In this document: one piece after another, positions 4,944-58,082 of the stretch
Layout of the letters: each line of letters opens with the position of its first letter
Numbering within the stretch: position 1 is the first letter of the stretch
NCBI GenBank assembly: GCA_964187785.1
Contig: OZ076415.1
Coordinates: 65,348,001 to 65,412,000, forward strand
Direction of reading: 5' to 3'
DNA length: 64,000 nt
Source: Amphiscolops sp. MND2022
Lineage: Eukaryota
Made by a program: the position numbers and the translations under genes
Notes under the pieces: model-generated
Told to the model about the DNA's origin: nothing
Database searches by the model: none
What the model saw: only the letters and a program-made list of their open reading frames with translations

Positions 4944-5154
4944 TGACACAAGCAATTCAATAACAGTAATGACAAACTTCATTCGGTACTAGAAGCAGAA
5001 ACAGAAGACGCTTGGCTGCCTTTTTATCTAAAAAATTCAGAAAATTCACCACGCTTACTATCTAGCCTTGCGTAGTTGTGGATTGGCATCCAAGACAATG
5101 ATTAAACATGTCAGCACTATTGAGGAGTTCATGAATTTCTTATGACTCCAAGTT

Positions 5155-7628: not shown

Positions 7629-7642
7629 GTATTGCTGACCAT

Positions 7643-9222
7643 TGTCGCACGCATGGGTAAAATTTGTTTATTAGTTTTAATCTGTCAAGTCCTTGTTTGC
7701 ATTTTACAAGGTACTATCTCGCGACGGTTCTGTTATTGATTTAACAAGTATAAGTCCCAACAAATAAATTTGCAACTTACTAATAAAGGGGGTGCCTTGC
7801 GCTTACGTGCGGACAAAAGAAATTGCGTGAGTCGTGCAAGGCAGTGGTTGTAAATGAGCTTCCTGTTTACTGAAAATGTATGGTGAATAAATATGTTTAA
7901 TTACGAATGAGTTGAGAATATTGAAAGTGGACAATTTCTGGACATAGCCATATCTCTTGCAATTGTTACAAATCTCAGATTAATAAAGATTACAACTTCA
8001 TTTTACAAGAAGAAGTAATATAACTTTTACAATTTATCATTTAAGAAAATGAAACTATTTACAAATAATGAGAATTTCCCTTTTTCTTCGGAAATCTTTT
8101 TCTCAAACAAAATTTACAAATCCGTACTATTTTAAACGGAAGAGTTTTGATTTAGATGTCTCTATTCAGTAGAAAGTTGAATAGCATTAAGACTTTTTCA
8201 TAATATAGCACTTTAAAATTTCAATCATCCCTTTTCTTATGTGAGTTTAAGTAACGTCAACCTTATAGAACTATTTAGTTCTAGTGAAAATAATCAAAGT
8301 TAAAGTTTTGTCAACCGCAGAATTGAAATCAGCGGAAAATAGCTAAATTTGAAGTTTTGTCAACCGCAGAATTGATATCGGCGGAAAATAGTTAAAGTCA
8401 AAGTTTTGTCAACCGCAGAATTGAAATCAGCGGAAAATAGCTAAAGTTGAAGTTTCAGAGAGAGTGAAATCTCTACTGAAAGGTCTAAATAGTCAGACTC
8501 ACCAAACCGGAGACGAAATTGAAGAGAAATTTCTAAGTTAGAAATTTCTTGTAAGGGAAGATTGGTTCTGGAAGTTGAAGTTAAATCAAGGATGAGTGGA
8601 GAAATTTTCTAAGATGCAAGGGTAGGATTAAAAGAGAATCATTGGATCTGAGTTATAAAGCAAGAAGTTTTGTTGAGTTAAATAGGAATCTGAATTGAAA
8701 TGTGAAGGCGAGAAATAGACTTTCTAAGTCTGAAGGGGAAGATAATAGTAAAGGGAGAGGAAAGGGGGTAAAGTAAGAAAGAAGTGCAGGGGTGAGGGGA
8801 GAGAAGTGGAAGAGAAGTGAAGAGAAACGAGAGCTTTTAAGTTTAAGCTCTGTCCGTTTCAATAAGTGTATGAATCTCCTCGCCTGCGTTGGCCGTATAT
8901 ATACAGCCAAGCATTTCTTATCGTGCGCTGCGTAGCAGGCATGGCTTATCTTTCACCAATCATAGTTGGTTTCATATTTCAAATATACGCGGTATAATAT
9001 AGAATTCTTCACTTGTGCAATTCCTTTCTCGTCACAGTACTTCATCATCATTATTACCATCGTTATGGCCGCCGCCTTATGGCCGCCATCTTCATCTACA
9101 ACTTTCTCCCCCATAAACAAACGTTAGTTCTAGTTCATGTTTGTTTCTTTATTTGTTAATTAAATATAAACTGCACTTTAGCACCTAATTATGTTTGTTA
9201 AAGCGTTAGTCATAACGCGACA
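7643..9222 (-). repeat. 3' LTR (1580 bp)
   Basis: Direct repeat of 23951-25530 with three substitutions spotted by eye; TG...CA termini. Confidence 0.97.
8303..8449. repeat. Three tandem 49-bp repeats inside the LTR (also 24611-24757)
   Basis: AAGTTTTGTCAACCGCAGAATTGA... starts at 8303, 8352 and 8401; each unit has a CCGC...GCGG inverted pair. Confidence 0.9.
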
Positions 9223-9234
9223 GCTCACCCCCCC
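9223..9234 (-). promoter_or_regulatory. Polypurine tract
   Basis: Minus strand GGGGGGGTGAGC immediately precedes the 3' LTR. Confidence 0.75.
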
Positions 9235-9259
9235 GGCAGGATGAAAGAAAATAAATGAG

Positions 9260-10197
9260 TTATGGGTCAGACTGAAAGAAGGGGGAGTTATGTAGCGCGA
9301 GTGACTGAGGGGAAGGTTCCTTAAATTTGATTCTAAATATTATAGAGTCATTGTTTAGGAATGCTTCTCTGAAGTTGCAAGTAACTTCGTATGAGGGATG
9401 AAGTCTTCTTTGAGGAGGTTCGGGTGCGTGTAGAGATTGTGAAGGGTATCTTCGTGGTTGTGGGGGTTGATTGGGAAAAGTGTGGACCACTTGTTGCCTT
9501 CGTCCTTCTGATCAAGTATTTCGACTTCTACTGTTTTATCAAAGGGCCATGTTTGTGGGTGAGTGAAGTCGCTATAATGAAGTTCACAGCTAATAGAAGA
9601 GTGGGTCCCACGGAAGATGTTTATCCCGTAAGGGAATATTCTGAAGGAAATTTTGCAGCCTGATAGGTATGTTGGGTAAATAGGGCTCGCGAAGCTGTTT
9701 TTGATGTTGTGAAAGGGATCGTCTGGAGAGGTCCTTGCTTTTCGGTAAAGTGTGGAGAAGGCGGAAACTTGCCAAGTGATAAAATCTTTACCGTTCGCTT
9801 CAATCTGGCTCGCTCTGCTAAGGAGGGAGCTTTGGTGTTTGATTGTCGCTCGCAAATCGAAGATAGTGACTTCCAATTGTTGACGTTTATCTCGTGCCTC
9901 TTCGATTGAGGTACATAGCAGTTTGATTCGGTTTTCTAACTTCTTTTGGGGTTGATTAATGTCCGTTAAAGGGAAGGACTTTCGAAGCGGTGTGCTTTTT
10001 GTTCCCTGGTTATAGGTACTAGTTGATTTCTCCCATTCACTAATCCACATATTTAGTCTTTCCACTCCTTCGAGGTTTGCATGTTCTTCTTGATCGTTTT
10101 CTTCAGGCATAGGTGGCCAGTCGGGGTTAGGGATCGGTAGGTAGGGTTTGTGTTTTGGGATGAAGGGGGTGGCATTTGGGTTTAATTTTTGGCTCAT
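9260..10197 (-). CDS. Accessory protein: PAM2 motif + coiled coil + TRAF-C/MATH domain (one frameshift near 9370-9390)
   Basis: N-terminus QKLNPNATPFIP. TRAF motifs ITWQVSAF, FASPIYPT, IFPYG and TWPF lie in ORF 9355-10197. The last TRAF strand FLNNDSIIFRIKF lies in the overlapping frame 9260-9490. Confidence 0.8.
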
Positions 10198-10775
10198 TGT
10201 GCAGATATGGATCTTAAGGGAACTGTCAGCCGCTGTCCCTTCAGTGCAGGGTTCTCAATAGTGTATTCTTGTCTTTTGTTGTCCCAAAAGACGATTTTCC
10301 AGGTTGAAAACTGTGGGAGTAGAGAATACTTTAGGTTTGCGTTAAACCTAGGTTTTTTAACGTATCTGGCTTTTCTAGTGAAGTATTCCCTTTTATGTTG
10401 CTTATGTAAGGGTGCTTCATCGGCTATCTCGTTGTTCCATTCATGATAGTGTTTTTGTGGTGTGGTTCTTCTGATGTCCTTTCCACCAAATCTAGGAGGA
10501 TGTTGTGTTGACGGGATTGGTGGTATGTCTCCTGTGAATGACAAAGGAAAGGGGAGTTGGTCGGATGGCGTTGGTGTGAAGGTTGGAGTTGGAGATTTTG
10601 AGGGTGATGATGGGACCGTTGAGTCAGGGGGGTCGGGAAGGAAGGTAATTGTTGTAGACGAGTCTGGTGTCAAAAAGTCTGAAGGAGATAGGGGTTCGAT
10701 TTCTAGGTCACTTTCTGGGATAGGATCCAGGGTATCGTCGTCCAGGCTTGGTAGGTCGAATAGTGGTTCTAGATT
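10194..10775 (-). CDS. Accessory protein exon (acidic/Pro-rich N-terminus, basic C-terminus), probably spliced
   Basis: The frame is open from 10775, directly after a TTAGTTTACTTTTAG acceptor-like site, with no ATG. The stop overlaps the next ATG (ATGA at 10197-10194). Confidence 0.6.
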   Translation of the reverse strand, partial: NLEPLFDLPSLDDDTLDPIPESDLEIEPLSPSDFLTPDSSTTITFLPDPPDSTVPSSPSKSPTPTFTPTPSDQLPFPLSFTGDIPPIPSTQHPPRFGGKDIRRTTPQKHYHEWNNEIADEAPLHKQHKREYFTRKARYVKKPRFNANLKYSLLPQFSTWKIVFWDNKRQEYTIENPALKGQRLTVPLRSISAQ

Positions 10776-10821
10776 CTAAAAGTAAACTAATGAATGAATG
10801 AACTTGAAAATGTTTTTGGCT

Positions 10822-12969
10822 TTATATTGGAGCTACGAAGCTCTGTACTGAGGGATAAAGTGATTCTTCCTTATTCTTCAGTGCTTGGAGTTCTACTTCT
10901 TTTCCATTATCTTCAGTTTTCGCGTTTTTATCTTCAACGCTATCCTCGTAAGGGGCCCGCGGGGTGAATACAGAAGTTAAAACTGAAGTAAAGAAAAGAT
11001 TGTACGAAGCACTGAGCAATGTTTTAGTGAAGCTCAGTGTATTACCTGTGAGGTGACGAAGTTCAAAGTATCGGAAGACGAGTACCGTGATATCTATTAC
11101 GAACTTAATGAAAAGAAAGGCGCCAAAATACGCGCCGCAGAGTTCTAGTACGTAAGATATACTTCCAAATGTTTCAAGGAACTGATTTTTGAAGTAATCG
11201 GGTGAGATCATGCCGTCAACATAAAAATCTGTACGGGGTGCATAATACGCGAAAGATTCAGGTCCACTATGGGCCATTGAGGGTGTGATGAGCTCTCGTG
11301 AGAACTTCTGGAGGGCGTTGCGAGACGCTGCGCTGATGAGGATGTTGTCCCAAAATTCTGAGAGTTGTTTAGGCGTATACATTCCCGCGTCTTGTGAACC
11401 AGGGAAGGATCTAGTAATCATTGGTTGTATGTCTTTGGGTCCGAAGATAGCAGGTCGGTCGCGATGTTCGGGTGAAGGAGTGAGGGTAAACCAGGAGTCT
11501 TTGTCTTCCATATCCAATTGAAAGAGGTTCTTAATGCGATCGCTGCAATTTTGGGCGTTCGCGTTAGGATAGGTCTGTCGGGTGATTGGGTCCACGAAGG
11601 CAACCACTCCTTTGTAGAAGATGGGTATGCGGTCGTAGCATCGGTTCATCGTGTGAAGAGGTGAGTGGGATTCCGGACAGTGGTAGAGCCAAGCGAGGCT
11701 GCCATCTGTGTTCAGGAACATTGAGCGATTTCCCGTGAGCATGTATCCGGCGAGGCGAGGATTTTCCATTGATAGCATCAAAATAGTAAGGATTTGAGTT
11801 CTTTCTTGTTCGCATTGTGCTTTGAGGAGCTGGATTTCTGAAGCTTCGAGGAGACGAGTGCTCTCAAAGAAGAGATAATCAAGCTTTGTCCCTTGGTGTA
11901 ACTCGTAATCCATGTTGAGGTAATGAGGTGTATTAGGGTTGGGGTCGCTCGGGCCTCGAAAGAGGTGGAGTCGGCCATTACCAGAACCATCTTCGGGTGA
12001 ATAATATTGTAGTTTAGATGTCTCTCCCATGGAGATGCCGAGTCGTCTGCCGGACGTCATGTCGAAGCCACCAAGTTGGATTGAAACGTACAGGGATTCG
12101 TAGTTGGTCGGGTATACATCGTCTGGTTTGTTGCAATACTTTTGTGGTCTGTTGTAGACTTCGAATAAAAATTTGGTAGTGGAGTCGTTGCCGCTTACAA
12201 TATAGTAGTTAGATCCGTGTTTGATCATGTTCACGATTTCTTTCCTATGTACTGCAAGCACGCAATTATCGGGCTCCGCCCATGTGTAGGCGTATGGGTC
12301 CAGTGACGTCGTTTCGCAACCTAGTTGTTCTAAGGGGCAGGGAAGGACCATCTGAAACGGAGTCAGGACTTTTCCATCTCGAGTTTTTACTGATAATTCA
12401 GCATCTTGGATGTGAGATTCGAATGTTTCTCTTTTGATCCAGCCACCTGTCTTGCATTCATTTCGGGTATCTGGGTCGCGTACACCGTCCCAACTCTTTC
12501 CGTATTTGGCGTTTCTCGTCTGTACTTGTTTCACTCCTTTCTTAAATTTGAGGGGTTGTCCATGGATTATGACTTCTTTGCCTTCACCCATTGCCTTGCA
12601 GGTTTCGGGTGACAGGGAAAGATCGCTGGTGATTCCGTCGTGTAGGATTGACATACTGGAGTGGTCGTGATAACCACAATGCCATTCTTCACTCTGATGT
12701 TTCACACGGCACATAGTGGCGTTGATAGTGCGGCGGAAATGTTTAGTGTATAACGTTACGCTCGCACGACTTACCTCTAAGTTTTCAGGTGCCACATTGC
12801 ATTGTTCAACTTGATTCAATGCGTAGAGTTTATTTTGGGTCATTTCGCCGCAGTCGAAATGAGTTACTCGCAGTTTTTTAGCAACGCTAGCGAGGTTTGG
12901 CGTTGGACGTTGTAATATCACAACGGGCGCGTAATGGGCGCATAAAAAGAGTAAGTAAAATAATTTCAT
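10822..12969 (-). CDS. env: Envelope glycoprotein, chuvirus-G-like (class III fusogen-like)
   Basis: N-terminal signal peptide; Cys pattern HFDCG...C...MCRV......HCGYHDHS; N-glycosylation sequons; C-terminal hydrophobic TM segment; TTTCAG acceptor-like site 2 nt before the ATG. Confidence 0.8.
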   Translation of the reverse strand: MKLFYLLFLCAHYAPVVILQRPTPNLASVAKKLRVTHFDCGEMTQNKLYALNQVEQCNVAPENLEVSRASVTLYTKHFRRTINATMCRVKHQSEEWHCGYHDHSSMSILHDGITSDLSLSPETCKAMGEGKEVIIHGQPLKFKKGVKQVQTRNAKYGKSWDGVRDPDTRNECKTGGWIKRETFESHIQDAELSVKTRDGKVLTPFQMVLPCPLEQLGCETTSLDPYAYTWAEPDNCVLAVHRKEIVNMIKHGSNYYIVSGNDSTTKFLFEVYNRPQKYCNKPDDVYPTNYESLYVSIQLGGFDMTSGRRLGISMGETSKLQYYSPEDGSGNGRLHLFRGPSDPNPNTPHYLNMDYELHQGTKLDYLFFESTRLLEASEIQLLKAQCEQERTQILTILMLSMENPRLAGYMLTGNRSMFLNTDGSLAWLYHCPESHSPLHTMNRCYDRIPIFYKGVVAFVDPITRQTYPNANAQNCSDRIKNLFQLDMEDKDSWFTLTPSPEHRDRPAIFGPKDIQPMITRSFPGSQDAGMYTPKQLSEFWDNILISAASRNALQKFSRELITPSMAHSGPESFAYYAPRTDFYVDGMISPDYFKNQFLETFGSISYVLELCGAYFGAFLFIKFVIDITVLVFRYFELRHLTGNTLSFTKTLLSASYNLFFTSVLTSVFTPRAPYEDSVEDKNAKTEDNGKEVELQALKNKEESLYPSVQSFVAPI

Positions 12970-13037
12970 TTCTGAAATTCTTCAGTCTTTGACAATCAAT
13001 CAGGAAAAATGTTTTTTATAGATATGTGGATCCACGG

Positions 13038-13457
13038 TAAGGCCGTAAAAAGGCAAGCCGTAATATCAAACCGGCAGCTTAGCTGGCACGACACTAAGCG
13101 GAGGTTAAAATTTTATAGTAGTAACCTCACTACTATTGGAAAGTGCCTTATAGAAAGATTGTTTTTTTTTGTTTAAAGTATAGGTTTCGGAGTAAGGCCG
13201 TAAAAAGGCAAGCCGTAATATCAAACCGGCAGCTTAGCTGGTACAACACTAAGCGGAGGTTAAAATTTTATAGTAGTAACCTCACTACTGTTCACACGTA
13301 CCTAAGAGAAGGAGTAGTTTATTTGTCTTTTAGTTTAGTTTAATGTTATGGATCCTGAAATAAGGCCGTAAAAAGGCAAGCCGTAATATCAAACCGGCAG
13401 CTTAGCTGGCACGACACTAAGCGGAGGTTAAAATTTTATAGTAGTAACCTCACTACT
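13038..13457 (-). repeat. Three 97-bp structured direct repeats separated by 58- and 71-nt unique spacers
   Basis: Copies at 13038-13134, 13193-13289 and 13361-13457. They differ only at two positions in copy 2, both in a predicted loop. Confidence 0.95.
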
Positions 13458-13517
13458 ATTCAAAGAGTGCCCGAAGAAAAATAGTAAAAGAAACTAACTT
13501 CAACCATCTGTGAAGGT

Positions 13518-13862
13518 TCAGCTGTAGTTATCACTGATTGATTTTAGACTGGGAGAGTGTTTGTTACGTCTCTGAGCGTCGAGGAAATCGATTAACTTGC
13601 TGAGGAGATGAAGGGTCAGAGGGTGAACGTGATCTAAGTAAGCGATCTCCCTGTAGTCGGTTAGCGCCTTCGCAAGATCTGCTGCTTCTGTCGAGTCTGT
13701 GGCGACAGGGATGAGCCAATGTCCCGTTTGATGTGGTCGGAGGCTGTGGAGTTCAATCTGAAGTGCGGGGGCGCTCTCTTTCCAGGCTATAGAGAGGATC
13801 TCAAGAAGTGTGTTTGTTTCCGGGTGACGCCAGAGGAATTTGAGTTGTATTTTAAACATCAT
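13518..13862 (-). CDS. Small accessory ORF (paralog family), likely ATG at 13862
   Basis: Overlaps the stop of the upstream ORF by 11 nt; shares an S-x-x-x-A-x-L-x3-L-x2-Y pattern with its neighbours. Confidence 0.6.
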   Translation of the reverse strand: MMFKIQLKFLWRHPETNTLLEILSIAWKESAPALQIELHSLRPHQTGHWLIPVATDSTEAADLAKALTDYREIAYLDHVHPLTLHLLSKLIDFLDAQRRNKHSPSLKSISDNYS

Positions 13863-14247
13863 AGGTCTCAACTAGGGTGTGAAGATATTTGATTCTAACC
13901 TCTTCTTCAAAGGGGTTAGTTACTAGGGTGATATCCATAAAATAAACCAAGTCGTCGAAAGCCTTGTCTTTAAGGACGGCGGGGTGTTGGAGTATGTATT
14001 GTTGGAACGATAGGAATAGGTAGGCGTATTCCTTGGACCCGAAGTGAATAGGGAAGAGGACTAGTGCTTCTTTGTCTTCTGGTGTGAGTATACGGACTTG
14101 TATCGCCGAGGTAGTGATCTCGTAAAAGATTGACTGTATTTCGTATTCACCCGTGAGTTGTATGGGTTTCCAAGGAACCGGAGGTTGAAATTGAGTGTGG
14201 AAGTAGTACTTATTTCCTCGAAATACGGCAACTGCGGGAGAGGACAT
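13852..14247 (-). CDS. Small accessory ORF, 131 aa (paralog family)
   Basis: Its ATG overlaps the upstream TAA (TAATG at 14249-14245). Confidence 0.65.
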   Translation of the reverse strand: MSSPAVAVFRGNKYYFHTQFQPPVPWKPIQLTGEYEIQSIFYEITTSAIQVRILTPEDKEALVLFPIHFGSKEYAYLFLSFQQYILQHPAVLKDKAFDDLVYFMDITLVTNPFEEEVRIKYLHTLVETYDV

Positions 14248-14468
14248 TAAAGGACTGACTTGGCTCTTGTGAAGACTTCGGTAGGTGTGTTATTATATAG
14301 TAGACTCTCCAGTAGTGGGTAGATAGGTGATGCTGGCACACACGTGTAGGTTTCACTCTCTTCTTCTGCGATTGCGTAGGCTTGTATGATTATGTTCTGT
14401 GTTGAGGGTTCCTTCTGAATATCAGTTATCTGGGAAAGTCGGTTGTCAATTTTGAATATTATGATCAT
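14247..14468 (-). CDS. Small accessory ORF, 73 aa
   Basis: TGATG overlap at its start and TAATG overlap at its end. Confidence 0.55.
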   Translation of the reverse strand: MIIIFKIDNRLSQITDIQKEPSTQNIIIQAYAIAEEESETYTCVPASPIYPLLESLLYNNTPTEVFTRAKSVL

Positions 14469-14635
14469 CAGTGAGCTGTTATGCCTTGTGGCGTGTGTGC
14501 ATCAAACATAGCAAATCTGAGAATGGAATCATCAGTTATTTCATTGCGTTTTTGGGGGTATTTGTAGAGGAGAGAGGATTACGACTTCATGAGTCGTCGT
14601 AGTAAACTAGACAAATGTCCGGGTAGGATATTATA

Positions 14636-14727
14636 TTTTATATCTGATGACTAAGTTGAATAGTGATACATATATGGTTGACTTCAATCAATAATTATAA
14701 ACACTTTGCATGACTTTAAATAAATCA
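14636..14727. promoter_or_regulatory. Candidate internal bidirectional promoter
   Basis: TATAAAA on minus at 14642-14636, TATAAA on plus at 14696-14701 and Inr-like TCA at 14725-14727; divergent ORFs on both sides. Confidence 0.35.
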
Positions 14728-14742
14728 AATTTGTATTTAGGG

Positions 14743-15405
14743 ATGAGCAACAACAACAACAACAACTATAGCGACTATTACGAAGAATCCTCGACCGATG
14801 AGGAGACTACTGCTCCAGGGTCTGTGTCGGGCACTGCCGCTACCTCTTTGCCGCCACAATCGTCGTCGTCAGCTGGGCCGTCCTCGTCGAGCGGAGCGCG
14901 CACCAGTTCTTCTGCTCCCGCGTCATCAGGTTCTCAGGCAGGGACCTCTGGGGGTGGGTCTTTTGTGGCGTTTGTGGCCCCGAGGACTAGTGGCCCTTTT
15001 CCGCAAGCTCCCTCTACCATCTCGCAGGGTGTTTTGGAGAGCCCGGGGGATCAAAGTTTTATGGGTTTATTTACCCATAGGGATATCGACCGCCTAGAAA
15101 ACTGGGCTTCATTAACTAGTTCCCTTCAGGGTACCCCCGGGTTTTCTGTTTCTGGGCCTCCCGGTCCAAATGCTCTAACTAGTTTCTTGCGGGCTAACTG
15201 GGGGGCCCGTTGGGAGCAGACTCTCCTGTCCTCTCTCGGCGAAATAGTCGTCTTCCAGCTGCGAGCCTACATAAGTGGCTACTCGCAGCTGACTAGTTTT
15301 GAGAGGGGTCAGTGGACCCGCCTCTATTCATTGTGGACAATGGGGGAGCGGGCGGCTCAGCTGCGGCGACTTGCAGAGAAGGGAGGTTTCCTGGAGATTG
15401 AGTAG
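14743..15405 (+). CDS. Antisense accessory gene (Ser/Gly-rich N-terminus, helical C-terminus)
   Basis: Long ORF opposite the element strand in a region with no minus-strand ORF; TATA upstream and AATAAA at 15532-15537. An alternative ATG is at 14710. Confidence 0.65.
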   Translation: MSNNNNNNYSDYYEESSTDEETTAPGSVSGTAATSLPPQSSSSAGPSSSSGARTSSSAPASSGSQAGTSGGGSFVAFVAPRTSGPFPQAPSTISQGVLESPGDQSFMGLFTHRDIDRLENWASLTSSLQGTPGFSVSGPPGPNALTSFLRANWGARWEQTLLSSLGEIVVFQLRAYISGYSQLTSFERGQWTRLYSLWTMGERAAQLRRLAEKGGFLEIE

Positions 15406-15572
15406 GCATTATTGCCTCTCATCTCCAGGAAATACTTTATTTTTCTACGCTTTTGTGTTTGCTGCTTTTCGTAAGTTCCTTCTCGGGGTTGCACAAATTG
15501 TATAGATAAAAAGTCTAATAATAATAATAATAATAAAGATAATATTTTTTTCGAATAAGCGGTAATATCCGG

Positions 15573-15998
15573 CTAGGAGCTAGGCGAGGAGATAGTAGAA
15601 CAGCAGAATAAGTCTTTTTGTGTGTTAGGTAATGAAGGTTGTAGGTCAGGTATCAGGGTAGGCATGTAGGATAGTAGTTCCTCTAGGATAGGGTCATGGT
15701 GGGTGACGGCATAATAGGCTAAGTGTTGATATAAGCGGGCGAAAGTAGGTGATTCTGGGTGTATATGAAGGTTAGATTTTCTAGGCGTAGGTTGTTTATG
15801 TGGGCTAGGATCTGGGTCGTTGGAGTAGAAACAAATTCTAACTATTTTGTTTTTGTAGGTCCAGTAGATTTTAGTAATCGTAACCTGCAGAATTCCTAAG
15901 GACTGGAGTTCTCGCGGGACTTGCCAAGGCAAGTTTAGATAGACTTTATGGCACGGCATAGTAAGGTTATTCTTTGTAACCAATTCTAGTCCTTTCAC
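15573..15998 (-). CDS. Small accessory ORF after pol, 141 aa (paralog family)
   Basis: Overlaps the pol stop by 32 nt; LHIHPESPTFARLYQHLAYY resembles FPIHFGSKEYAYLFLSFQQY of ORF 13852-14247. Confidence 0.6.
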   Translation of the reverse strand: MKGLELVTKNNLTMPCHKVYLNLPWQVPRELQSLGILQVTITKIYWTYKNKIVRICFYSNDPDPSPHKQPTPRKSNLHIHPESPTFARLYQHLAYYAVTHHDPILEELLSYMPTLIPDLQPSLPNTQKDLFCCSTISSPSS

Positions 15999-18900
15999 GA
16001 AGTATGGACTGTCGTGCTGGTTGATTGGGTTGTGCTCGCTGATAACGTGGATTTCTCTCTATTTGGCGGGCAACAGCCTTTCGTAACTCTTGCAAGGGAG
16101 TCGTTGACTTGGTAGACGATGCCGGGGTGTTAGTTGGGGGTGCTGGAGTTGGTTGACGTTGAGTTAACGTCAGGATAGGGGTTGCTGCGTTTTGAGGATG
16201 TGATGTCGAAGGCTGATCGGGAGTCTTGGGAGTTGACAACAACTGATTTTCTGGAGAGATGATACCAGAGTCTGTGCTCTGGGGGGTTTGCGTTCTTTTG
16301 CGGGCAAGTATTTGGTTTTGTTGATTCCGTACTGGCAATATGGAGAGGTCTCCGAGTTTTTGTGGTTCTGAAACATTAAGTTGTTCAATTCTTCCTTTGA
16401 CAAGATTGTTATAAAAATCCGTGTCTCCACGGTGGGGAGTAGTGTATTCTTCGATAAGAGGGGGGAGTGTTTCTTCTTTAGGAAAGTATTCTATTAGATG
16501 GTTCCTATGTACAGTTCGGAGATTCTCGGGGTTTTGATCTTCCATTATTTGGTAAGTTGTATTTGTAATTCGTTTGGTAACCGTAAAGGGTCCTAGTCGC
16601 AGTTGTTGGAGTTTTTGGCTTTTGGAGAGGTCTTTTCGATGGTTCTCTAGCAGAACCTTTTGTCCAATGTTGAGGTGGTTCCCAAGTTTAAATCTGTTCC
16701 TGTAGGCGTGTGATTGAGCTGTTTGTTTTCTGCACTTTTCATATGTGGATGAGTAGACCTTTTTGAAGGCTGTTTCTCGTTCCAATAAGCTTTGTGATAG
16801 TTGTGGTCGTAATAGTCCATTTAGTAGTTCGTTTTTGACTTGGTTTTCGCTATGGCAATGAGGAGGTAATCCTTGACAGAATTGTGATTTGCAGTTCTTG
16901 TTTTTGTTCCTGTAGAGTCCCAGCTTCAGACTCATAGGTATCTGTGGTTTATTGCAAAACACTATCTCGTAGGGGGTCTTTCCAGTCGTGTAGTTGACGC
17001 TTGTGTTGTGGGCGAATGCAAATTTGGCAGCTAGTTGGGCCCAGTTGTTTCCTGATTCGTTTAGGAAGTTTCTCCAGTATCTTGCAATGTGTTGATTTTG
17101 AGTTTCTACTTTGCCATTTGTCCAGGGTGAGTGTGCGGTTCTTGGTCGAAGTGTAATGCCAAACTCTTTAGTCCAATTGACGAATTCAGTGTTCACGAAA
17201 GCTGTTCCTCTATCATGTACGATAGATTGAGGGATGCCATAGTGCATAATCCATTTTTCCATCGCATTGATTGTAGATTGTGCTCCTGTGTCTCTGACTG
17301 GGTATGCCATCAGGTAACGTGAGAAGGCGTCGATGATCAGAAGGCAATGTGAATTTCCACGACTGGGAGGATTGAGTGGTCCTTTGTGATCAATGTGGAT
17401 GGTTCTGAATACTTGAGTTTCGGTTTCGCAGTCTTCCAGTGGGACTTCGTTGTTTCTCCGTTGTTTGGATTTGTTAGATTGGCAGCTAACACAATCTTGT
17501 GTGAGGGCACAGATCCAGTTGTGCATCCCTGGCCAGTAGTAAAATCTCTTAGCATTGAGGAAGGTCTTTTCTGCTCCCATGTGGCCGCCGAGGTCGTTGT
17601 AATGTCCCATACGAAAGCAAGCTAAAAATAGAGAGAGAGGTAGACAGATTCTCAGATTCTCGTCTGTTGGGTCATCAGTTGGCTCGTTATAACAAAGGAG
17701 GTTTCCTTGGCCTTCTATAGATAATCTGTCGAATTCCTGAAAGTAACGCATGAGGCCTTTTGAGTGTTGTAACTCTGGTGATTTTGGTTCGGGTTTGTTT
17801 CCTGTTCTTACCCATTGTCGGACCACGCTGAGTACCGGGTCATTTATTTGTTCTTGTAAGATCGTTGTAACGTTTAGTTCTACTTCTTTGGATAGTTTAT
17901 CAAGTTGTCTGACAAGTTCCTGTGTTGGTGTCTTTTGTTTTTCAGTTGAATTTGTAGGTAGATCGAGGTGTTCTATTGCCTTCGCGTTTTTGGGAAGACT
18001 TGGGTTACGTGCGATGGGATCTTCTGTGTTGAGCTCGTAGTTGGTCTCGTTTATTTCTTGACTCTGATTGTCTGTGAGGGCTTCGTCATCCGTATCACTG
18101 TTGATGGAGCTGTAAGTGTTTTGTGATAAATCCGAAGTGCTATCCCGTGTTCCTGACCTGATTCTTAGTTCTTCGAATTTTCCAAGTTCTCTTCCAGCGT
18201 CGAGGCAACTCTGTGCTGACTCTACTTTCGGCAGGTTAGGTTCTTCGTAGATAGAGTTAACTGTGAAGTTATTCCCATCATTTTGGAGATGAAGTACTTT
18301 CCGTTCTTTTCCCTTCTCGTACAAGATGGGGTAAAAGTCGTTCTTGGATGTCTCTTCATTTTCTTCGTGTTTGATTTTGTAGTGTACTTGGGTTCCATGT
18401 TCGTCGAAAAAGTGTATGTCAGTTGGGATGACTTTGTGACTGAGTTGATGTTTCTTGTGTTCCTCGATGGAGACGTTTCGACTGAGTATGTCAGGGAAGG
18501 CTAGGTTGCTTCCTGGAGTCCAAATTATCTTGAGATTCGGGAATTTAGATATAATTACTTGGTACCTGAAAAAACGGGGTGAAATTTGTCCCTTTCTTCC
18601 CCAGAGATAAAGAATCGGCTTGTGATCGCAGTATAGGTAGATGGGGAAGGGAGATCCGATGATGTAGTGTTCATACGTCTGAAGAGCTGAGACTATGCCA
18701 CATAATTCTCTGTGTAGTGTGGACATCTTTTGTTCTTCCTTTGCGAAAACTCTTGAGTTGAAGGAAATGATCCGTTTCCCTTCTGGGAATTGTTGGATGA
18801 GGATACATCCTGTCCCAACGTTTGACGAGTCGACGTGTATGTGAAAGGGGTATTTTGTCGAGGGTATTGCGAGCACTGTGTCTTCGGTAATTCTTTTCTT

Positions 18901-21477
18901 TATTTCCTGGAAAAGGTCTTCGTGTTCTTGGTTCCAGCAAAAATTTGTATCTTTCTTGGTGAGTTCGTAAAAAGGTCGACTATCGACATGAAGATTCTTG
19001 ATGTAGCAGCTATAGAAGCCCAAAGCTCCTAAGAAGCTTTTCACTTCGGTTTTGGTCTTTGGTGATTTGAGATTGTGTAGGTCTTTTACTCGTTTTGCGA
19101 CAGGTTGTATTCCTTCGGCTGCTATCACGTGTCCCAAAAACTTGACTTTCCTTAAGAAGAAGAGTGTCTTATCTGGTGCTGCCTTGAGTCCGGCTTTCCG
19201 CAGTAAGTTATGGTATTCTTGAATTACCGTGAACATTTCTTGTTTGTTTTTGGCTTGCATCAACGTGTCGTCGATGTATGTAATTGCCTGTTTCCTTTTG
19301 ATGAGGGGTTCGAAGTGGATAGTCATCATTCTGCTAAAGAAGCTTGGTAATCCCTTGAGTCCATAGAATCCCCTGGTGAAGGTGTATTGTTTTCCGCCAA
19401 TGATGAAGCTGGTGAGTTTTTGCGTGGGCTCGTCTAATGGGACTTGGTGAAATGCACAGGAGAGATCACTTACTGAGAAGATGTTTCCATTTATTAGTGT
19501 CATTATGGTTTGGATCGGTTCTAAGGGCCAGGAATAATTTGTTAGATCTGTCACCGAGTTTAGATATCTCGCATCTATGATCAGCTTGACATAGTCATGT
19601 TTTGGTTGTAGTATAATAGGATTCACAAATAAGGATCCCATTTCTTCATCGTCGCCCATTTCTCTGATGATATCAGCGTCTTTGAGTTGTGTGAGTAGCT
19701 TCTCTAGCTTTTCTCGTAGGTGAAGTGGTACTTTGCTGGGTCTCTGTCTCTTTAGAATTGCTCCAGGTTCTAGTTTAATGTTAAATTTTTGTCTGGTTTT
19801 CCCTACGTCAAATTTGTGTTGGGAGTATACATCTCTTGCGTCCATTAGTAAGTCTATTAGGAGAACCAGTTCTTCGTCTGTGAGGTCTGAGTAGCGAAAG
19901 TCGAATTCTTTAATGTATCGCACTGCTTCCTTATTTTGATACTGAAGGTAGTACTCGATCAGTCGTTCGTTGTCTTCTTTTGGCCTGAAGATTTTAAATT
20001 GCTCATCGCAGGGTGGTTGACAGGACTTTGCGTCGCTTGTGAAGTCTGTCTCCAGCTCTCTATGTTTGAGATGAAATTGCTCGGAAAATTGTTGTATCTC
20101 ATCTTCTAGTACGTATTCGGGGTCTCCTCTTGTAGTCATGGCATAGACATCTAGTTCGTTTCTTGTATAAATTCGGAGTTGTATTTCTGAGTATGCAAAT
20201 ACGTCTTGAATGAGTTGAGTGACGTCTTGCCATTGGAAGTCTTCTAGCTCTGAGGCTTCCCGTAGCATGGATATAGTTTTGATGCCGCTCATTTTGGCGT
20301 GTGCTTTTAGAGTTTCGAGAGATTGAACTAGTAATTGTGGGTCAATCTTGTCTTTTGATTTTGCTTTCGTAATCAGAACATATATAAATCGTTTCAGAGT
20401 TTCGTCCCAGTAGGGTATGGTTTCTCCTTTCTGTGGTTTCTGTTTTGCGCATGTATCCTTAAGTGAAGGTATTTTCGTTAGGATTTCTTTTGAGAAGCCT
20501 TTGGCTGGCTTTAGGTCGGCCGGGACGAAGATGATGATAGGGTCTGGTCTGCTGAGTATTGTTTTCGAGTTTCCTCCTTCTATTCTGAGGCAATCGTTCA
20601 TATCTTGTGAAGGAATGGTAGAGTGTAATAGGAAACAGTCGTTGTATTCTTCGTTTTCGTTTAGGATAGCATATGCGAGTTCTGTCGGGTTTCTAATTTG
20701 GTATTTCGGAATTTCTTGGTCTAATACGTCAAGCATTGAGTATCCGATAGTTCCTTTTACTAAGGTGATTGTATGGTTTTTGTTGTTTTCCATGACGATT
20801 GGTAAAGTCTTCTCAAATCGTGTGCAGAGGACATTTATGAAGTTAAGTCCAGTAGAAACTGCCTTCCTGTTCGGTAGGAACGTAGATCCAGGAGGAAATG
20901 AGTTATTAGTGTTTTCTGGTGCGAATTTGTAACATCTTGTCGTCTTTGGTTCGATATACATTGAGTGAGGAATTCTGACTGAGAGAATTTGTGATATATA
21001 GGGGTAACATTTGTTGAGTTGTAGGCTACCATAGCAGAAAGTATTTATAAGTCTTTTGAGTTCTATGCCAGGAAGATCAAAGTGTATTTTGTTAACTTGT
21101 TCTTGGCAGAAATTCATTCCAAGGAGGTTTTGGGTTTTCATCTCTGTTATCCAGACTGTTAATGGGAAGTTATGTTGTCCATCGGAATCGTAGTAGAGTT
21201 TGAGGGTGATGTATCCCATCATAGGGATGATCTGCCCAGAGTAGTTCCGTGTTGTGTTATTGCTTCTACTAAGTTCTAGGTCTTGTTGAAACTGGCAAAG
21301 TTCTCTAAAGGTCCTGTAGTTGATGATTGAAGATGTTGCCCCAGTGTCTAGTAGAAATTCGATTTCTAAGCCACTATCTTTTTGTGAGTCTCCGGCAGCA
21401 AAATAATAAAGATTAAGACTAAATTTTAGAGGGGCACTGCTGCTATTTCTATTTTTCGGAGACCTTAGTAGTTTAAA
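15967..21477 (-). CDS. pol: Pol polyprotein: protease, macrodomain, reverse transcriptase, RNase H, integrase
   Basis: The frame is open upstream of the track ATG (21222) and includes LLDTGA at 21348-21337. It has RT YIDD, RNase H VDSS/DHKP, integrase HHCC (H.....GH...CVSC), the D,D(35)E-type core IHID/HDRG/KVETQN and a GPF motif. Confidence 0.97.
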   Translation of the reverse strand, partial: FKLLRSPKNRNSSSAPLKFSLNLYYFAAGDSQKDSGLEIEFLLDTGATSSIINYRTFRELCQFQQDLELSRSNNTTRNYSGQIIPMMGYITLKLYYDSDGQHNFPLTVWITEMKTQNLLGMNFCQEQVNKIHFDLPGIELKRLINTFCYGSLQLNKCYPYISQILSVRIPHSMYIEPKTTRCYKFAPENTNNSFPPGSTFLPNRKAVSTGLNFINVLCTRFEKTLPIVMENNKNHTITLVKGTIGYSMLDVLDQEIPKYQIRNPTELAYAILNENEEYNDCFLLHSTIPSQDMNDCLRIEGGNSKTILSRPDPIIIFVPADLKPAKGFSKEILTKIPSLKDTCAKQKPQKGETIPYWDETLKRFIYVLITKAKSKDKIDPQLLVQSLETLKAHAKMSGIKTISMLREASELEDFQWQDVTQLIQDVFAYSEIQLRIYTRNELDVYAMTTRGDPEYVLEDEIQQFSEQFHLKHRELETDFTSDAKSCQPPCDEQFKIFRPKEDNERLIEYYLQYQNKEAVRYIKEFDFRYSDLTDEELVLLIDLLMDARDVYSQHKFDVGKTRQKFNIKLEPGAILKRQRPSKVPLHLREKLEKLLTQLKDADIIREMGDDEEMGSLFVNPIILQPKHDYVKLIIDARYLNSVTDLTNYSWPLEPIQTIMTLINGNIFSVSDLSCAFHQVPLDEPTQKLTSFIIGGKQYTFTRGFYGLKGLPSFFSRMMTIHFEPLIKRKQAITYIDDTLMQAKNKQEMFTVIQEYHNLLRKAGLKAAPDKTLFFLRKVKFLGHVIAAEGIQPVAKRVKDLHNLKSPKTKTEVKSFLGALGFYSCYIKNLHVDSRPFYELTKKDTNFCWNQEHEDLFQEIKKRITEDTVLAIPSTKYPFHIHVDSSNVGTGCILIQQFPEGKRIISFNSRVFAKEEQKMSTLHRELCGIVSALQTYEHYIIGSPFPIYLYCDHKPILYLWGRKGQISPRFFRYQVIISKFPNLKIIWTPGSNLAFPDILSRNVSIEEHKKHQLSHKVIPTDIHFFDEHGTQVHYKIKHEENEETSKNDFYPILYEKGKERKVLHLQNDGNNFTVNSIYEEPNLPKVESAQSCLDAGRELGKFEELRIRSGTRDSTSDLSQNTYSSINSDTDDEALTDNQSQEINETNYELNTEDPIARNPSLPKNAKAIEHLDLPTNSTEKQKTPTQELVRQLDKLSKEVELNVTTILQEQINDPVLSVVRQWVRTGNKPEPKSPELQHSKGLMRYFQEFDRLSIEGQGNLLCYNEPTDDPTDENLRICLPLSLFLACFRMGHYNDLGGHMGAEKTFLNAKRFYYWPGMHNWICALTQDCVSCQSNKSKQRRNNEVPLEDCETETQVFRTIHIDHKGPLNPPSRGNSHCLLIIDAFSRYLMAYPVRDTGAQSTINAMEKWIMHYGIPQSIVHDRGTAFVNTEFVNWTKEFGITLRPRTAHSPWTNGKVETQNQHIARYWRNFLNESGNNWAQLAAKFAFAHNTSVNYTTGKTPYEIVFCNKPQIPMSLKLGLYRNKNKNCKSQFCQGLPPHCHSENQVKNELLNGLLRPQLSQSLLERETAFKKVYSSTYEKCRKQTAQSHAYRNRFKLGNHLNIGQKVLLENHRKDLSKSQKLQQLRLGPFTVTKRITNTTYQIMEDQNPENLRTVHRNHLIEYFPKEETLPPLIEEYTTPHRGDTDFYNNLVKGRIEQLNVSEPQKLGDLSILPVRNQQNQILARKRTQTPQSTDSGIISPENQLLSTPKTPDQPSTSHPQNAATPILTLTQRQPTPAPPTNTPASSTKSTTPLQELRKAVARQIERNPRYQRAQPNQPARQSILRERTRIGYKE
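21387..21477 (-). promoter_or_regulatory. -1 ribosomal frameshift signal (UUUAAAC + downstream stem)
   Basis: The slippery heptamer T TTA AAC lies in the gag frame at 21477-21471 and pol is in the -1 frame. A 6-nt spacer is followed by GGTCTCCG pairing with CGGAGACT and GCAGCA pairing with TGCTGC. Confidence 0.8.
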
Positions 21478-22919
21478 GGGCGGAAATCGGCAATAGAGTT
21501 CACCGAGTAGTCGGTTTCTAAGAACTGTACTGTGTTGGATCTTCCTATGTCATTAGTTTTTGGGAATCTTTGCTCGTAAGATTGAGTTGGAGTGTTGGGT
21601 CTTTCGTTTCTGTCTAGTGGTCTTTGAAAAACTGAGTTATTTCTTGGTGGAAGAAGTTGTATGTTGCGATTAAAGGAGCTAGACTGGTCTCTGTTGAAGT
21701 TGAACGGAGATCTTGCTCTTTGGGGTCCGGGGGAAACACTTCTGGAGTTGTTAGAATTGTTTAGGAAGGGTTTTCTCCCTTCTTGTGAAAATCTTTGGTT
21801 ACCAGGATTGACTCTTGTATTCGTAGGTCGGCGTTCTGGGTTGAAATTTTTTCTTTGTGGTCTATCGTATTGATTCCAGGCAGGGTTTGACTGCATAGCT
21901 CCAGCCAGTGCTAGTTGATGTGCCACAGCCATATGTTTTCTGATTTCTGAATCTGGTAATCTTGGTTGAAATCTAGAGCCATGTTCAGGTCCAGTTCTTT
22001 TGTTGTAGTCGTTGGTGAATGTTATTCTTCTTTCTGGGTTAGCTTCGTTTTGAACCTTCTTCACTTCTTCATCTCTCATCTTCTTTCTGCACCAGTTAGG
22101 TGTGTGCCCATTTGTTCGGCAGTAGCCACAGAATCGTGTGGCCATTCTTCGACCTGTAGCATTAGGGTCTACAGTTTTCTCTACTGCGTTGATTGTGTTA
22201 TTCATCTGTTCTTTGATTTGTAGTTTGATTCCCTTCAAGTCGTCTCGCATTTCTTGTATGAGTGGGTCTGAATGTGATTCTCCGCCAGTTAGGGCGGTAG
22301 TTACCGTGTAGGAGAGGTCTTTGTTTATTACAGCTTGGGAGAATTGTTCCCAGGTTGCATTCGGGTGATCCATTAAATATTCGTGTGCCTTTTCTCTTAG
22401 TTTTGGAGGTCTTAGGCCTCTCAGTGAGTAGTCGATGCACCTTTGTCTTCTTTGTCGGTCTTGTGCTGCTCTTTCTGCGTTTCTGTCGTTTTGTGCGACG
22501 CCGGCAAGATCATCTGGCCAGCCTTTCCCCACAACAATTTTGATTCTGTGTAGAAAATTCTTTATCTCTTCTCCATCTCTTCTGGTGACATGTTCTGCTT
22601 CCATTCTGTGTCTGAATTTATTTCGGCCATCTGCGAATCTTGTGATGAACCTTTCTCTGATTTCTTGCCAGGTGTTAGCGTCTGTGATACTTGTCTCGAA
22701 CCACTCCGCTGCTGGTCCTCTTAGTAGTGTAGCAAAGTAGGATTTTCTCCTGAAGTTGTAGTCGTCAAGTGCTGCTCCGTTTGCTGGGGTATCACCATGA
22801 GAGAAACGGAACTTCTTTTCAATTAGCTGTATAAATTGTTCAGGATCTTGATCTGGGTCTGTTCCCGTGAATTGGTCTCTGCCGAGGTCTGGATAAGCCA
22901 AGTAATTTTGCGCAGCCAT
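21465..22919 (-). CDS. gag: Gag (capsid + CCHC zinc knuckle)
   Basis: Ty3-like LRGPAAEWF capsid motif; CGYCRTNGHTPNWC = CX2CX4HX4C. Confidence 0.95.
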   Translation of the reverse strand: MAAQNYLAYPDLGRDQFTGTDPDQDPEQFIQLIEKKFRFSHGDTPANGAALDDYNFRRKSYFATLLRGPAAEWFETSITDANTWQEIRERFITRFADGRNKFRHRMEAEHVTRRDGEEIKNFLHRIKIVVGKGWPDDLAGVAQNDRNAERAAQDRQRRQRCIDYSLRGLRPPKLREKAHEYLMDHPNATWEQFSQAVINKDLSYTVTTALTGGESHSDPLIQEMRDDLKGIKLQIKEQMNNTINAVEKTVDPNATGRRMATRFCGYCRTNGHTPNWCRKKMRDEEVKKVQNEANPERRITFTNDYNKRTGPEHGSRFQPRLPDSEIRKHMAVAHQLALAGAMQSNPAWNQYDRPQRKNFNPERRPTNTRVNPGNQRFSQEGRKPFLNNSNNSRSVSPGPQRARSPFNFNRDQSSSFNRNIQLLPPRNNSVFQRPLDRNERPNTPTQSYEQRFPKTNDIGRSNTVQFLETDYSVNSIADFRPLNY

Positions 22920-23929
22920 TGTGAGCTATTGAGATTATAAAGGATAGAAGATGAAGCAAAGAACAATAAGCCAAAGACTCTATGAGGTATGATACTCTTG
23001 GCTTTTGAGAATAACAGCAAAGAGTTAAAGTAAAAATTGTTTGTACTATGATTCTAATAGTGATAATTATTAGACAGGTCTGACAAATCATAAAATCCTT
23101 AATACGCTGCTAGCAAAAATGAAAATAACACTTCTCGGTCGAAGTTAGGCTCATTTCCTATATTTCGTACTCTGATTCCACAGTTTAGGGGATACTTACA
23201 AATCCCAGTAGTGTTGAGATTATCGTAAAAAGGGTAGTTCGGGGTATACCAATCCTCCGAGTTAACCCAAAGAAAACCTATGAAGAGTACAGTCAGTCCA
23301 CTAGGTCTTTCATCCGCTCGTTGAACCTTTCTTTAACTTTAGGAAAATAACTAGTTCACAGAGGGAGTTACTCTCGTCTTTAGGATTAAGTGCGTGGGGC
23401 CCAGATCACTATCATGCAATCACTTGGGTACTATCACTAGGATACTAGGTTTCCCACTCGGAATGCTACATAGGTTCCAAGATACCCACTGGGCTCACGG
23501 CCTTCAAACAGCCTCCGAGGAGACCTAGGCGGGCTTTTACTTAATTTGTGTCCGTCCGGACTAGAGTGAATTTCCCAACTGTGCCTTTAAATAAAGCGTA
23601 TAGAGTCAGTTTCATTCTTGTTTAGGACTGATGGTAATCTCATAGTATTTTCGTAAAGGTAAATCATTTCTAACAAATGGTTTTGGGGATTGAAAGAAAG
23701 AGAGTAGTGCATAAACTCTTCCCAAAGCTGTTAGGCTGGAGAGATTCTGTTAGAGTATTTACTAGCAGTTTTACGATTTATATAGATTAGAGAAGCCACA
23801 TATTGAGGCAGTAGGAGAAAGAAGAAAATTAGAAGTAATGTTAAGAGAAATAAGTAAGTAACCCTTACTTCTGAGAGTAGGGATTCTAACAGATAGCTCA
23901 TTTACTTCTCTATTACAAGAGAAAAAGTA

Positions 23930-23947
23930 GCCTCACTGGTCGCACCA
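23930..23947 (-). promoter_or_regulatory. Primer-binding site (18 nt)
   Basis: TGGTGCGACCAGTGAGGC begins after a 3-nt spacer following the 5' LTR; its complement ends in CCA like a tRNA 3' end. Confidence 0.85.
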
Positions 23948-23950
23948 GTT

Positions 23951-25530
23951 TGTCGCACGCATGGGTAAAATTTGTTTATTAGTTTTAATCTGTCAAGTCC
24001 TTGTTTGCATTTTACAAGGTACTATCTCGCGACGGTTCTGTTATTGATTTAACAAGTATAAGTCCCAACAAATAAATTTGCAACTTACTGATAAAGGGGG
24101 TGCCTTGCGCTTACGTGCGGACAAAAGAAATTGCGTGAGTCGTGCAAGGCAGTGGTTGTAAATGAGCTTCCTGTTTACTGAAAATGTATGGTGAATAAAT
24201 ATGTTTAATTACGAATGAGTTGAGAATATTGAAAGTGGACAATTTCTGGACATAGCCATATCTCTTGCAATTGTTACAAATCTCAGATTAATAAATATTA
24301 CAACTTCATTTTACAAGAAGAAGTAATATAACTTTTACAATTTATCATTTAAGAAAATGAAACTATTTACAAATAATGAGAATTTCCCTTTTTCTTCGGA
24401 AATCTTTTTCTCAAACAAAATTTACAAATCCGTACTATTTTAAACGGAAGAGTTTTGATTTAGATGTCTCTATTCAGTAGAAAGTTGAATAGCATTAAGA
24501 CTTTTTCATAATATAGCACTTTAAAATTTCAATCATCCCTTTTCTTATGTGAGTTTAAGTAACGTCAACCTTATAGAACTATTTAGTTCTAGTGAAAATA
24601 ATCAAAGTTAAAGTTTTGTCAACCGCAGAATTGAAATCAGCGGAAAATAGCTAAATTTGAAGTTTTGTCAACCGCAGAATTGATATCGGCGGAAAATAGT
24701 TAAAGTCAAAGTTTTGTCAACCGCAGAATTGAAATCAGCGGAAAATAGCTAAAGTTGAAGTTTCAGAGAGAGTGAAATCTCTACTGAAAGGTCTAAATAG
24801 TCAGACTCACCAAACCGGAGACGAAATTGAAGAGAAATTTCTAAGTTAGAAATTTCTTGTAAGGGAAGATTGGTTCTGGAAGTTGAAGTTAAATCAAGGA
24901 TGAGTGGAGAAATTTTTTAAGATGCAAGGGTAGGATTAAAAGAGAATCATTGGATCTGAGTTATAAAGCAAGAAGTTTTGTTGAGTTAAATAGGAATCTG
25001 AATTGAAATGTGAAGGCGAGAAATAGACTTTCTAAGTCTGAAGGGGAAGATAATAGTAAAGGGAGAGGAAAGGGGGTAAAGTAAGAAAGAAGTGCAGGGG
25101 TGAGGGGAGAGAAGTGGAAGAGAAGTGAAGAGAAACGAGAGCTTTTAAGTTTAAGCTCTGTCCGTTTCAATAAGTGTATGAATCTCCTCGCCTGCGTTGG
25201 CCGTATATATACAGCCAAGCATTTCTTATCGTGCGCTGCGTAGCAGGCATGGCTTATCTTTCACCAATCATAGTTGGTTTCATATTTCAAATATACGCGG
25301 TATAATATAGAATTCTTCACTTGTGCAATTCCTTTCTCGTCACAGTACTTCATCATCATTATTACCATCGTTATGGCCGCCGCCTTATGGCCGCCATCTT
25401 CATCTACAACTTTCTCCCCCATAAACAAACGTTAGTTCTAGTTCATGTTTGTTTCTTTATTTGTTAATTAAATATAAACTGCACTTTAGCACCTAATTAT
25501 GTTTGTTAAAGCGTTAGTCATAACGCGACA
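23951..25530 (-). repeat. 5' LTR (1580 bp)
   Basis: Copy of 7643-9222; candidate TATATATA at about 25205-25212. Confidence 0.97.
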
Positions 25531-58010: not shown

Positions 58011-58082
58011 CCTTAATTGATCGGAGCGAAGTGCAAAAACATTTTCTCAATCTCAACATTGAGGAACACTCGACTTTCCAAA

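Follow-up and report, generated by a model that had tools for sequence, protein, structure and literature searches.

Organization and conservation of the accessory region

We analyzed a window of 64,000 nucleotides (nt) from Amphiscolops sp. MND2022 (contig OZ076415.1, positions 65,348,001 to 65,412,000; coordinates below are those of the window) and found a group of small open reading frames (ORFs) within a single long terminal repeat (LTR) element of the env-bearing Ty3/gypsy type. This element spans 17.9 kb on the minus strand (7642-25530), and its gene order is gag, pol, A, the antisense gene AS, a short upstream ORF (uORF), B, C, D, a threefold repeat, env, E, and a MATH ORF. Among 40 scored candidates in a DNA search of G000 with the segment 13000-16000, there were 58 matches, and 14 of these were near full length at an identity of at least 99%; a search with ORF C gave 104 matches. 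We interpret the element as a young, recently amplified env-bearing Ty3/gypsy retrotransposon and the small ORFs as its accessory region.

Four of these ORFs lie on the minus strand between pol and the repeat. ORF A (15573..15959) encodes 128 amino acids (aa) and starts 7 nt past the pol stop. ORF B (14247..14468; 73 aa) has no internal ATG and a weak start, and ORF C (13852..14247; 131 aa) starts, also weakly, in the TAATG that ends B. ORF D (13518..13862, or 13859 if its second ATG, in a strong context, is used; 114 or 113 aa) overlaps C by 11 or 8 nt in the window (ATGATGTTTAA). An initial annotation of this sequence had described an ATG at 14590 with a TAA at codon 4, a TGATG onto B, a TAATG onto C, and the overlap of C with D, together with a motif peptide in each of A, C, D, and B; all of these are present. 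However, A does not belong to the coupled chain in which that annotation had placed it, because it lies 1.1 kb upstream of B, next to the pol stop, with a conserved antisense ORF in between.

The stop/start junctions are conserved among copies of the element. Among the 50 loci examined, 46 have a recognizable B-D region and four do not. The counts among these 46 copies are not independent because approximately 25 are near-identical to the window, such that the informative number is about six families. The B/C junction is TAATG or TGATG in 45 of the 46 copies, and the C/D junction is ATGTTTAA in 43, which exceeds what chance would give. Both overlaps are also kept in a family in which the amino acid identity to the window is 68% for B, 48% for C, and 57% for D. 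The spacing is flexible in L139, a relative from another sample, where the junctions are TAAATG and TAGATG.

Wherever dS allowed an estimate, pairwise comparison of the window with other families gave dN/dS values of 0.02-0.23 for A, AS, B, C, and D, which indicates purifying selection. Reading frames and lengths are maintained at 48-68% identity and, in relatives, at approximately 30-40%. These patterns identify A, AS, B, C, and D as real genes. The possibility that the small ORFs are not translated, or are cargo that evolves neutrally, would fit with their homologues all being unnamed gene calls, but dN/dS far under 1 for all five ORFs and the retention of frames and lengths over such divergence largely refute this explanation, which we consider highly improbable.

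The antisense ORF AS is located on the plus strand (14743..15405, from the aligned start at 14743; the first ATG is at 14710), with dN/dS values of 0.09-0.21. Its product has a Ser-rich or acidic N-terminal part and a conserved C-terminal domain of approximately 120 aa, and in most families an AG is found 0-3 nt before the ATG. AS has no match in Pfam or the PDB. It has 16 unnamed homologues and diverges faster than the adjoining genes. Both A and AS would be expressed from transcripts other than that of B, C, and D. In L062 (oriented 4459-4989), L063, and L089, an additional ORF of approximately 176 aa is located between AS and B; its carriers are the most divergent family and short non-autonomous derivatives. 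This ORF appears MATH-like by eye, yet it has no Pfam match.

A protein family shared by A, C, and D

The initial annotation considered A, B, C, and D to be members of one expanded accessory protein family, and its suggested all-versus-all profile alignment links three of the four. With deepened profiles (hhalign), C and D were matched at P 7e-8 (prob 94.5), D and A at 5.5e-5, and C and A at 4.7e-5, all in one consistent register and over 90-93 columns, i.e., the whole domain. Before deepening, single-sequence scores among A, C, and D were mostly weak, and shallow-profile comparisons gave only P 0.003-0.2. The added homologues were chosen by a joint profile, which may favor paralogy somewhat; a comparison of hidden Markov models (HMMs) with shuffled sequences is free of that bias and also links A, C, and D, but not B. 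These comparisons identify A, C, and D as old duplicates of one uncharacterized protein family.

The joint profile matched 49 clusters (at 50% identity) among 1.84 billion representatives, and the ten looked up are unnamed. Two homologues from these clusters were tested against G000, where their best matches were only 41% and 35% identical, so the family extends to other genomes. AlphaFold2 models of D (predicted local distance difference test, pLDDT, 81) and C (pLDDT 72) both have four (core) strands followed by three helices, a likeness in strand/helix order only. Fold searches with both against PDB representatives and BFVD gave nothing above background. In the comparison with known folds (Tudor-like PipX, PH, and SH3b), the best Z scores were 5.4 (D) and 5.5 (C); for PipX 3n5b, the values for D and C were Z 4.8 and 4.4 and root-mean-square deviation 4.2 and 3.8, with 75 residues aligned. 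A prediction of a C-D complex made without alignments scored 0.00, which counts neither for nor against an interaction. Two-domain homologues (P0029 and P0033) are read as frameshifted C-D copies and were rejected as true fusions.

By contrast with A, C, and D, ORF B is not supported as a fourth paralogue. Pairwise, HMM, and deepened-profile comparisons gave no significant match of B to the other three (P 0.07-0.8, with a shallow profile for B), and none appeared after two homologues from L139 were added. These two homologues, of 73 aa each, are arranged in tandem at L139:119-562 and joined by TAAATG; B thus has a duplication of its own.

No Pfam family scored above cut-off for A, B, C, D, AS, or ORF E (see below), and PDB sequence searches with the joint query, with AS, and with env returned either nothing or noise. 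A, C, and D are small and, by eye, have no obvious membrane segment or catalytic motif. They travel with host-facing cargo, namely, MATH/PAM2 and a macrodomain, and JmjC in a distant family. The B, C, and D products are probably small soluble proteins that act as host-facing adaptors. For A, C, and D, the likeliest role would be to counter host silencing as adaptors or to regulate the RNA of the element, a tentative assignment to which we give somewhat less than an even chance.

A distant Gypsy family, L112-L118, whose integrase is approximately 25% identical, also carries one A/C/D domain (e.g., L112:4931-5266 and L115:6022-6888), and a single member was found in all four of the loci scanned in G000. 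The 734-aa ORF that follows the paralogue in the distant element has no similarity to the env of the window. The A/C/D domain is thus ancient within these elements and independent of this env, and a role as its partner was down-weighted for the same reason. Members of this distant family further contain an antisense JmjC-like ORF (PF02373, E 6e-4, under cut-off) and a macrodomain after the integrase.

Predicted translation of B, C, and D

Upstream of B, a conserved non-coding block (14510..14545, minus strand) ends in TTCTCAG/ATTTGC and is a candidate 3' splice acceptor, with an exon from 14516, or a candidate internal start site. The motif is found in 40 of the 46 copies, with the AG intact in 39, and also in L139. 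In 38 of the 46 copies, an ATG after this motif opens a uORF of 3-14 codons. The uORF of the window has 13 codons (14468..14509, minus strand), those of other families have 3-14, and its end as TGATG on B is found in only 20 of the 46 copies. The 41-codon frame, broken at codon 4, that the initial annotation had described as ending on B was rejected as a gene, since none of the 46 copies has an ATG-started frame of at least 35 codons that ends at B.

B, C, and D are depleted of AUG codons. Out-of-frame ATGs number 0 in the window against 4.0 expected (P 0.008), 2 against 6.1 in L061 (P 0.015), and 1 against 3.6 in L069 (P 0.07). The clearing of AUGs from the upstream ORFs is thus significant in two of the three families tested, and there is a single internal Met among approximately 305 codons. 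AUG counts in gag, pol, and env fit the expectation, and none of 72 windows of 600 nt from these genes is as AUG-poor as B+C. Position -3 is occupied by a pyrimidine at the B and C starts and by an A at the D start in all six families, which corresponds to weak, weak, and strong starts.

We consider it an even chance that a single subgenomic mRNA serves B, C, and D, with leaky scanning as the main mode of translation, within a conserved accessory region. This mRNA would begin at the conserved motif at 14516, either by splicing or by an internal start. Ribosomes would skip the short uORF, or resume scanning after it, and then divide among the weak start of B, the weak start of C, and the stronger start of D. 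Polycistronic translation in a eukaryote, as first proposed, remains the likeliest reading of these patterns; a eukaryotic 18S gene as well as genes with introns are present in the host.

The main alternative mechanism is that B, C, D, and the MATH ORF are made by coupled termination-reinitiation as in SART1 or caliciviruses, with a non-canonical element tethering the ribosome. The distances are suitable: at B/C, C/D, and E/MATH, stop and start are at most 11 nt apart in nearly all copies, within the approximately 20 nt of the termination-reinitiation criterion. The canonical motif of termination upstream ribosomal binding sites (TURBS) is UGGGA, which pairs with UCCCA in the h26/ES9 loop of 18S rRNA. 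UGGGA is absent in all 18 upstream regions from the six families, and the presumed h26/ES9 loop of the host 18S (L122) has no UCCCA. Six-mers complementary to this presumed loop occur before D in four of the six families, where they are AT-rich and located 31-35 nt upstream, but before C in none of the six. UAAUG coupling is known from the retrotransposon SART1 (PMC10275272), and the out-of-frame AUGs in E would block scanning to MATH. Because of the AUG depletion, the weak starts of B and C, and the lack of a detected TURBS, leaky scanning is likelier than calicivirus-type reinitiation at B/C and C/D, and the analogy to termination-reinitiation made by the initial annotation is, in its TURBS form, not supported there. 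We regard termination-reinitiation throughout the chain as unlikely.

Alternatively, each accessory gene may have a separate mRNA, produced either by alternative cis-splicing to a shared leader or by trans-splicing of a spliced leader, in which case the overlaps would reflect only genome compaction. Acceptor-like AGs precede the uORF/B, env, E, and AS, and AGs are found 6-12 nt ahead of the starts of C and D in most families. However, the AG before C follows a purine-rich rather than a U-rich tract and is lost in L070, and the AG nearest D is lost in L069. Moreover, compaction leaves the AUG depletion unexplained, and the element has long non-coding spacers. This explanation appears rather unlikely.

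Several observations weigh against leaky scanning from one subgenomic mRNA. The depletion of AUGs is not significant gene by gene (P 0.09-0.46), and the families are related, such that the tests on them are not independent. D has a weak start in L139, and conservation of the motif at 14516 extends 10 nt beyond the AG, which is more than an acceptor requires. Strict conservation of the overlaps is a prediction of termination-reinitiation, and the ATGA at E/MATH suggests that the element can use this mechanism. The AG dinucleotides that closely precede C and D in most families make separate spliced mRNAs possible. Finally, no fold or family match from the Pfam, PDB, and BFVD searches supplies a function for the products.

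A candidate start exon and putative cistrons beyond env

ORF D is AUG-free although it is apparently the last of the chain. Ten nt past the D stop, 45 of the 46 copies have an ATG, two further codons, and GTTAGT (13493..13507, minus strand); these form a candidate start exon for ORF E, with a putative phase-0 donor at the GT at 13498. No other ATG occurs from the D stop to env. The codons differ in the most distant family, but their spacing is unchanged.

ORF E (10194..10775, minus strand) has 193 codons and no Met. It starts in phase 0 right after a conserved U-rich acceptor-like site (TTTAG) and ends as ATGA on the MATH ORF. E is open, Met-free, and ends in ATGA in eight of the 10 loci examined, whereas it is short in the other two; it contains several out-of-frame AUGs. 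Env has an acceptor-like TTTCAG located 2 nt before its ATG, and AS is also preceded by an acceptor-like AG. These candidate donor and acceptor sites resemble host splice sites inferred from three CCT genes.

The chain of cistrons thus probably continues past env, with the sequence pointing to one spliced mRNA with five cistrons as the predicted arrangement. The three-codon exon after D would be spliced across the pseudoknot array and env, which form a putative intron of 2.7 kb, and would provide the AUG-less E with its start. Since E holds out-of-frame AUGs, MATH would need true termination-reinitiation at the E/MATH ATGA or an mRNA of its own.

A triplicated structured RNA

Between the candidate start exon and env, a structured RNA of approximately 93 nt is present in three copies (13365-13457, 13197-13289, and 13042-13134, within 13042..13457, minus strand), each with an H-type pseudoknot and three hairpins. 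Other families have one to three copies. Among 20 units, 97% of cells pair and double changes are found in eight of the 25 pairs, a result that exceeds every one of the 500 shuffles and every slid control. It supports the structure but is not a probability, as the model was derived from the copy in the window and the 20 units are relatives of one another. One hairpin carries what we take to be a T-loop-like sequence.

Rfam searches of 13030-13510 found no match up to E 5, including exoribonuclease-resistant RNAs (xrRNAs), internal ribosome entry sites (IRESs), and ribozymes, and the repeat motif has no exact match in viral contigs. Comparison by eye with consensus sequences led us to reject a spliced-leader RNA gene, hammerhead, pistol, and hepatitis delta virus ribozymes, and a Pol III gene; the GT of the would-be donor covaries as part of a stem, and Rfam gave no match. 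The repeat is located inside the predicted intron and may, from this position, be an export or packaging signal; roles in blocking decay or as an IRES are equally possible. Internally deleted derivatives (L081 and L084-L092) still carry the candidate start exon and the repeat, along with parts of env and D.

Other features of the element

The 5' LTR (23950..25530) and the 3' LTR (7642..9222), both on the minus strand, are 1581 nt long with TG...CA ends and have three mismatches between them. The element is flanked by a 4-nt target duplication (CCAT), and a TGG stretch resembling a primer-binding site lies just inside the 5' LTR. Both LTRs contain 49-nt tandem repeats (8237-8504 and 24545-24812).

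The gag gene (21465..22919, minus strand; 484 aa) matches PF03732 above cut-off, and its 3' end overlaps the pol frame (15967..21549, minus strand), in which Pfam identified reverse transcriptase (RT), RNase H, and integrase. These domains, including gag, are of the Ty3/gypsy type, with gag followed by RT-RNase H-integrase. The env gene (10822..12969, minus strand; 715 aa) is located downstream of pol, as in errantiviruses, and encodes a Monjiviricetes-type fusion glycoprotein (PF24664, 114.6 bits against a cut-off of 27); a search of PDB sequences, which bears on its assignment to the F type or the gB type, gave no match below E 0.3. The MATH ORF (9355..10197, minus strand; 280 aa) has a PAM2-like N-terminus (PF07145, below cut-off) and a TRAF/MATH domain (PF21355, above cut-off).

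Upstream of RT, residues 233-351 of the ATG-started pol ORF (approximately 20170-20526, minus strand) form a macrodomain-like insert. This insert resembles the macrodomain region of the distant element L112 (tblastn E 6e-9), which has a PF01661 match just under cut-off. Elsewhere in the window, an open frame of 1411 codons (58017-62252, plus strand) has weak matches to C2H2 zinc-finger and endonuclease VII families, all under cut-off.

Comparison with known systems and implications

The env-carrying Ty3/gypsy "ancient errantiviruses" (PMC13524379) are similar to this element in their LTR-gag-pol-env order, many near-identical copies, animal hosts, and an env that belongs to a viral fusion-protein family. 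By contrast, the element described here has a gap of 3.0 kb between pol and env with five further ORFs and a structured RNA array, and two ORFs past env. The metazoan survey in that work set upper limits of 500-1000 nt on the distance from POL to ENV and of 10 kb on the total length, so elements like this one would be excluded by its gap and length filters; the words "accessory" and "antisense" do not occur in its main text. A 2012 review states that accessory genes had not been shown for errantiviruses (PMC3383448).

Rice tungro bacilliform virus (RTBV) and badnaviruses use leaky scanning through AUG-free ORFs with fused stops and starts (PMC5902531). Their ORFs I-II-III share with B, C, and D the small consecutive frames, fused stop/start, cleared AUGs, weak upstream starts, and a reverse-transcribing element. 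However, these are plant pararetroviruses, whose pregenomic RNA carries the accessory ORFs ahead of the polyprotein. Here, the ORFs occupy the pol-env interval of an LTR element from an animal and would be read from a subgenomic RNA, and the likeness is one of arrangement. The TAATG, TGATG, and ATGA junctions and the 8-nt overlaps resemble the UAAUG of SART1 and the TURBS of caliciviruses and influenza B (PMC10275272). Those systems join two ORFs and need defined RNA structures, whereas here at least three are chained without a canonical rRNA-pairing motif.

Conserved extra ORFs between pol and the 3' LTR, some of which are antisense, are also found in the plant elements Retand, Grande, and RIRE2 (PMC7264820) and as the ORF3s of bdelloid elements (PMC5408684); the proteins are different, and the abstracts contain no paralogous stop/start-coupled cassette. 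The Tor elements of Oikopleura (PMC4402516) are likewise invertebrate env-bearing LTR elements, some with an internal promoter, which provides a precedent for an internal start at 14516; they have a three-gene layout, and no accessory cassette appears in the abstract. Thus, env-bearing Ty3/gypsy elements and extra and antisense ORFs were already known, whereas an element with seven conserved extra ORFs that include a coupled cassette of paralogues did not appear in the literature searched. These searches, with subscription journals, Repbase, and supplements outside their coverage, returned no description of such a cassette.

Complex retroviruses, such as human immunodeficiency virus (HIV), human T-cell leukemia virus type 1 (HTLV-1), and foamy viruses, have accessory genes around env, an antisense gene, and multiple splicing. 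The element described here is similar in its several accessory genes around env, its antisense gene, its predicted multiple splicing, and a structured RNA in a predicted intron; the differences are its Ty3/gypsy-type domains and Monjiviricetes-type env. Use of uORFs and leaky scanning is also described for complex retroviruses (PMC5902531). It is possible, though doubtful when all parts are taken jointly, that an invertebrate Ty3/gypsy lineage independently evolved a program of the complex-retrovirus kind. Such a program would rely on a multiply spliced five-cistron mRNA (uORF-B-C-D-E-MATH) that is read by leaky scanning, with a start exon of three codons and reinitiation at AUGA, and would further comprise an antisense gene and a new three-copy protein family. 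It would also include tandem pseudoknot RNAs of a new class within the env intron, which would mark unspliced RNA in the manner of a Rev response element or constitutive transport element (RRE/CTE) or block 5' decay.

Complex retroviruses are regarded as distinguished by their accessory genes and by their elaborate expression from subgenomic RNAs. The analysis also yields an unnamed protein family (the 49 clusters) and an unclassified structured RNA. If the proposed expression is true, a nuclear-transcribed animal mRNA would have up to five cistrons and provide a testable model of polycistronic translation without TURBS. The presence of seven conserved extra ORFs in a young, multi-copy animal element suggests that a class of such elements has been overlooked.

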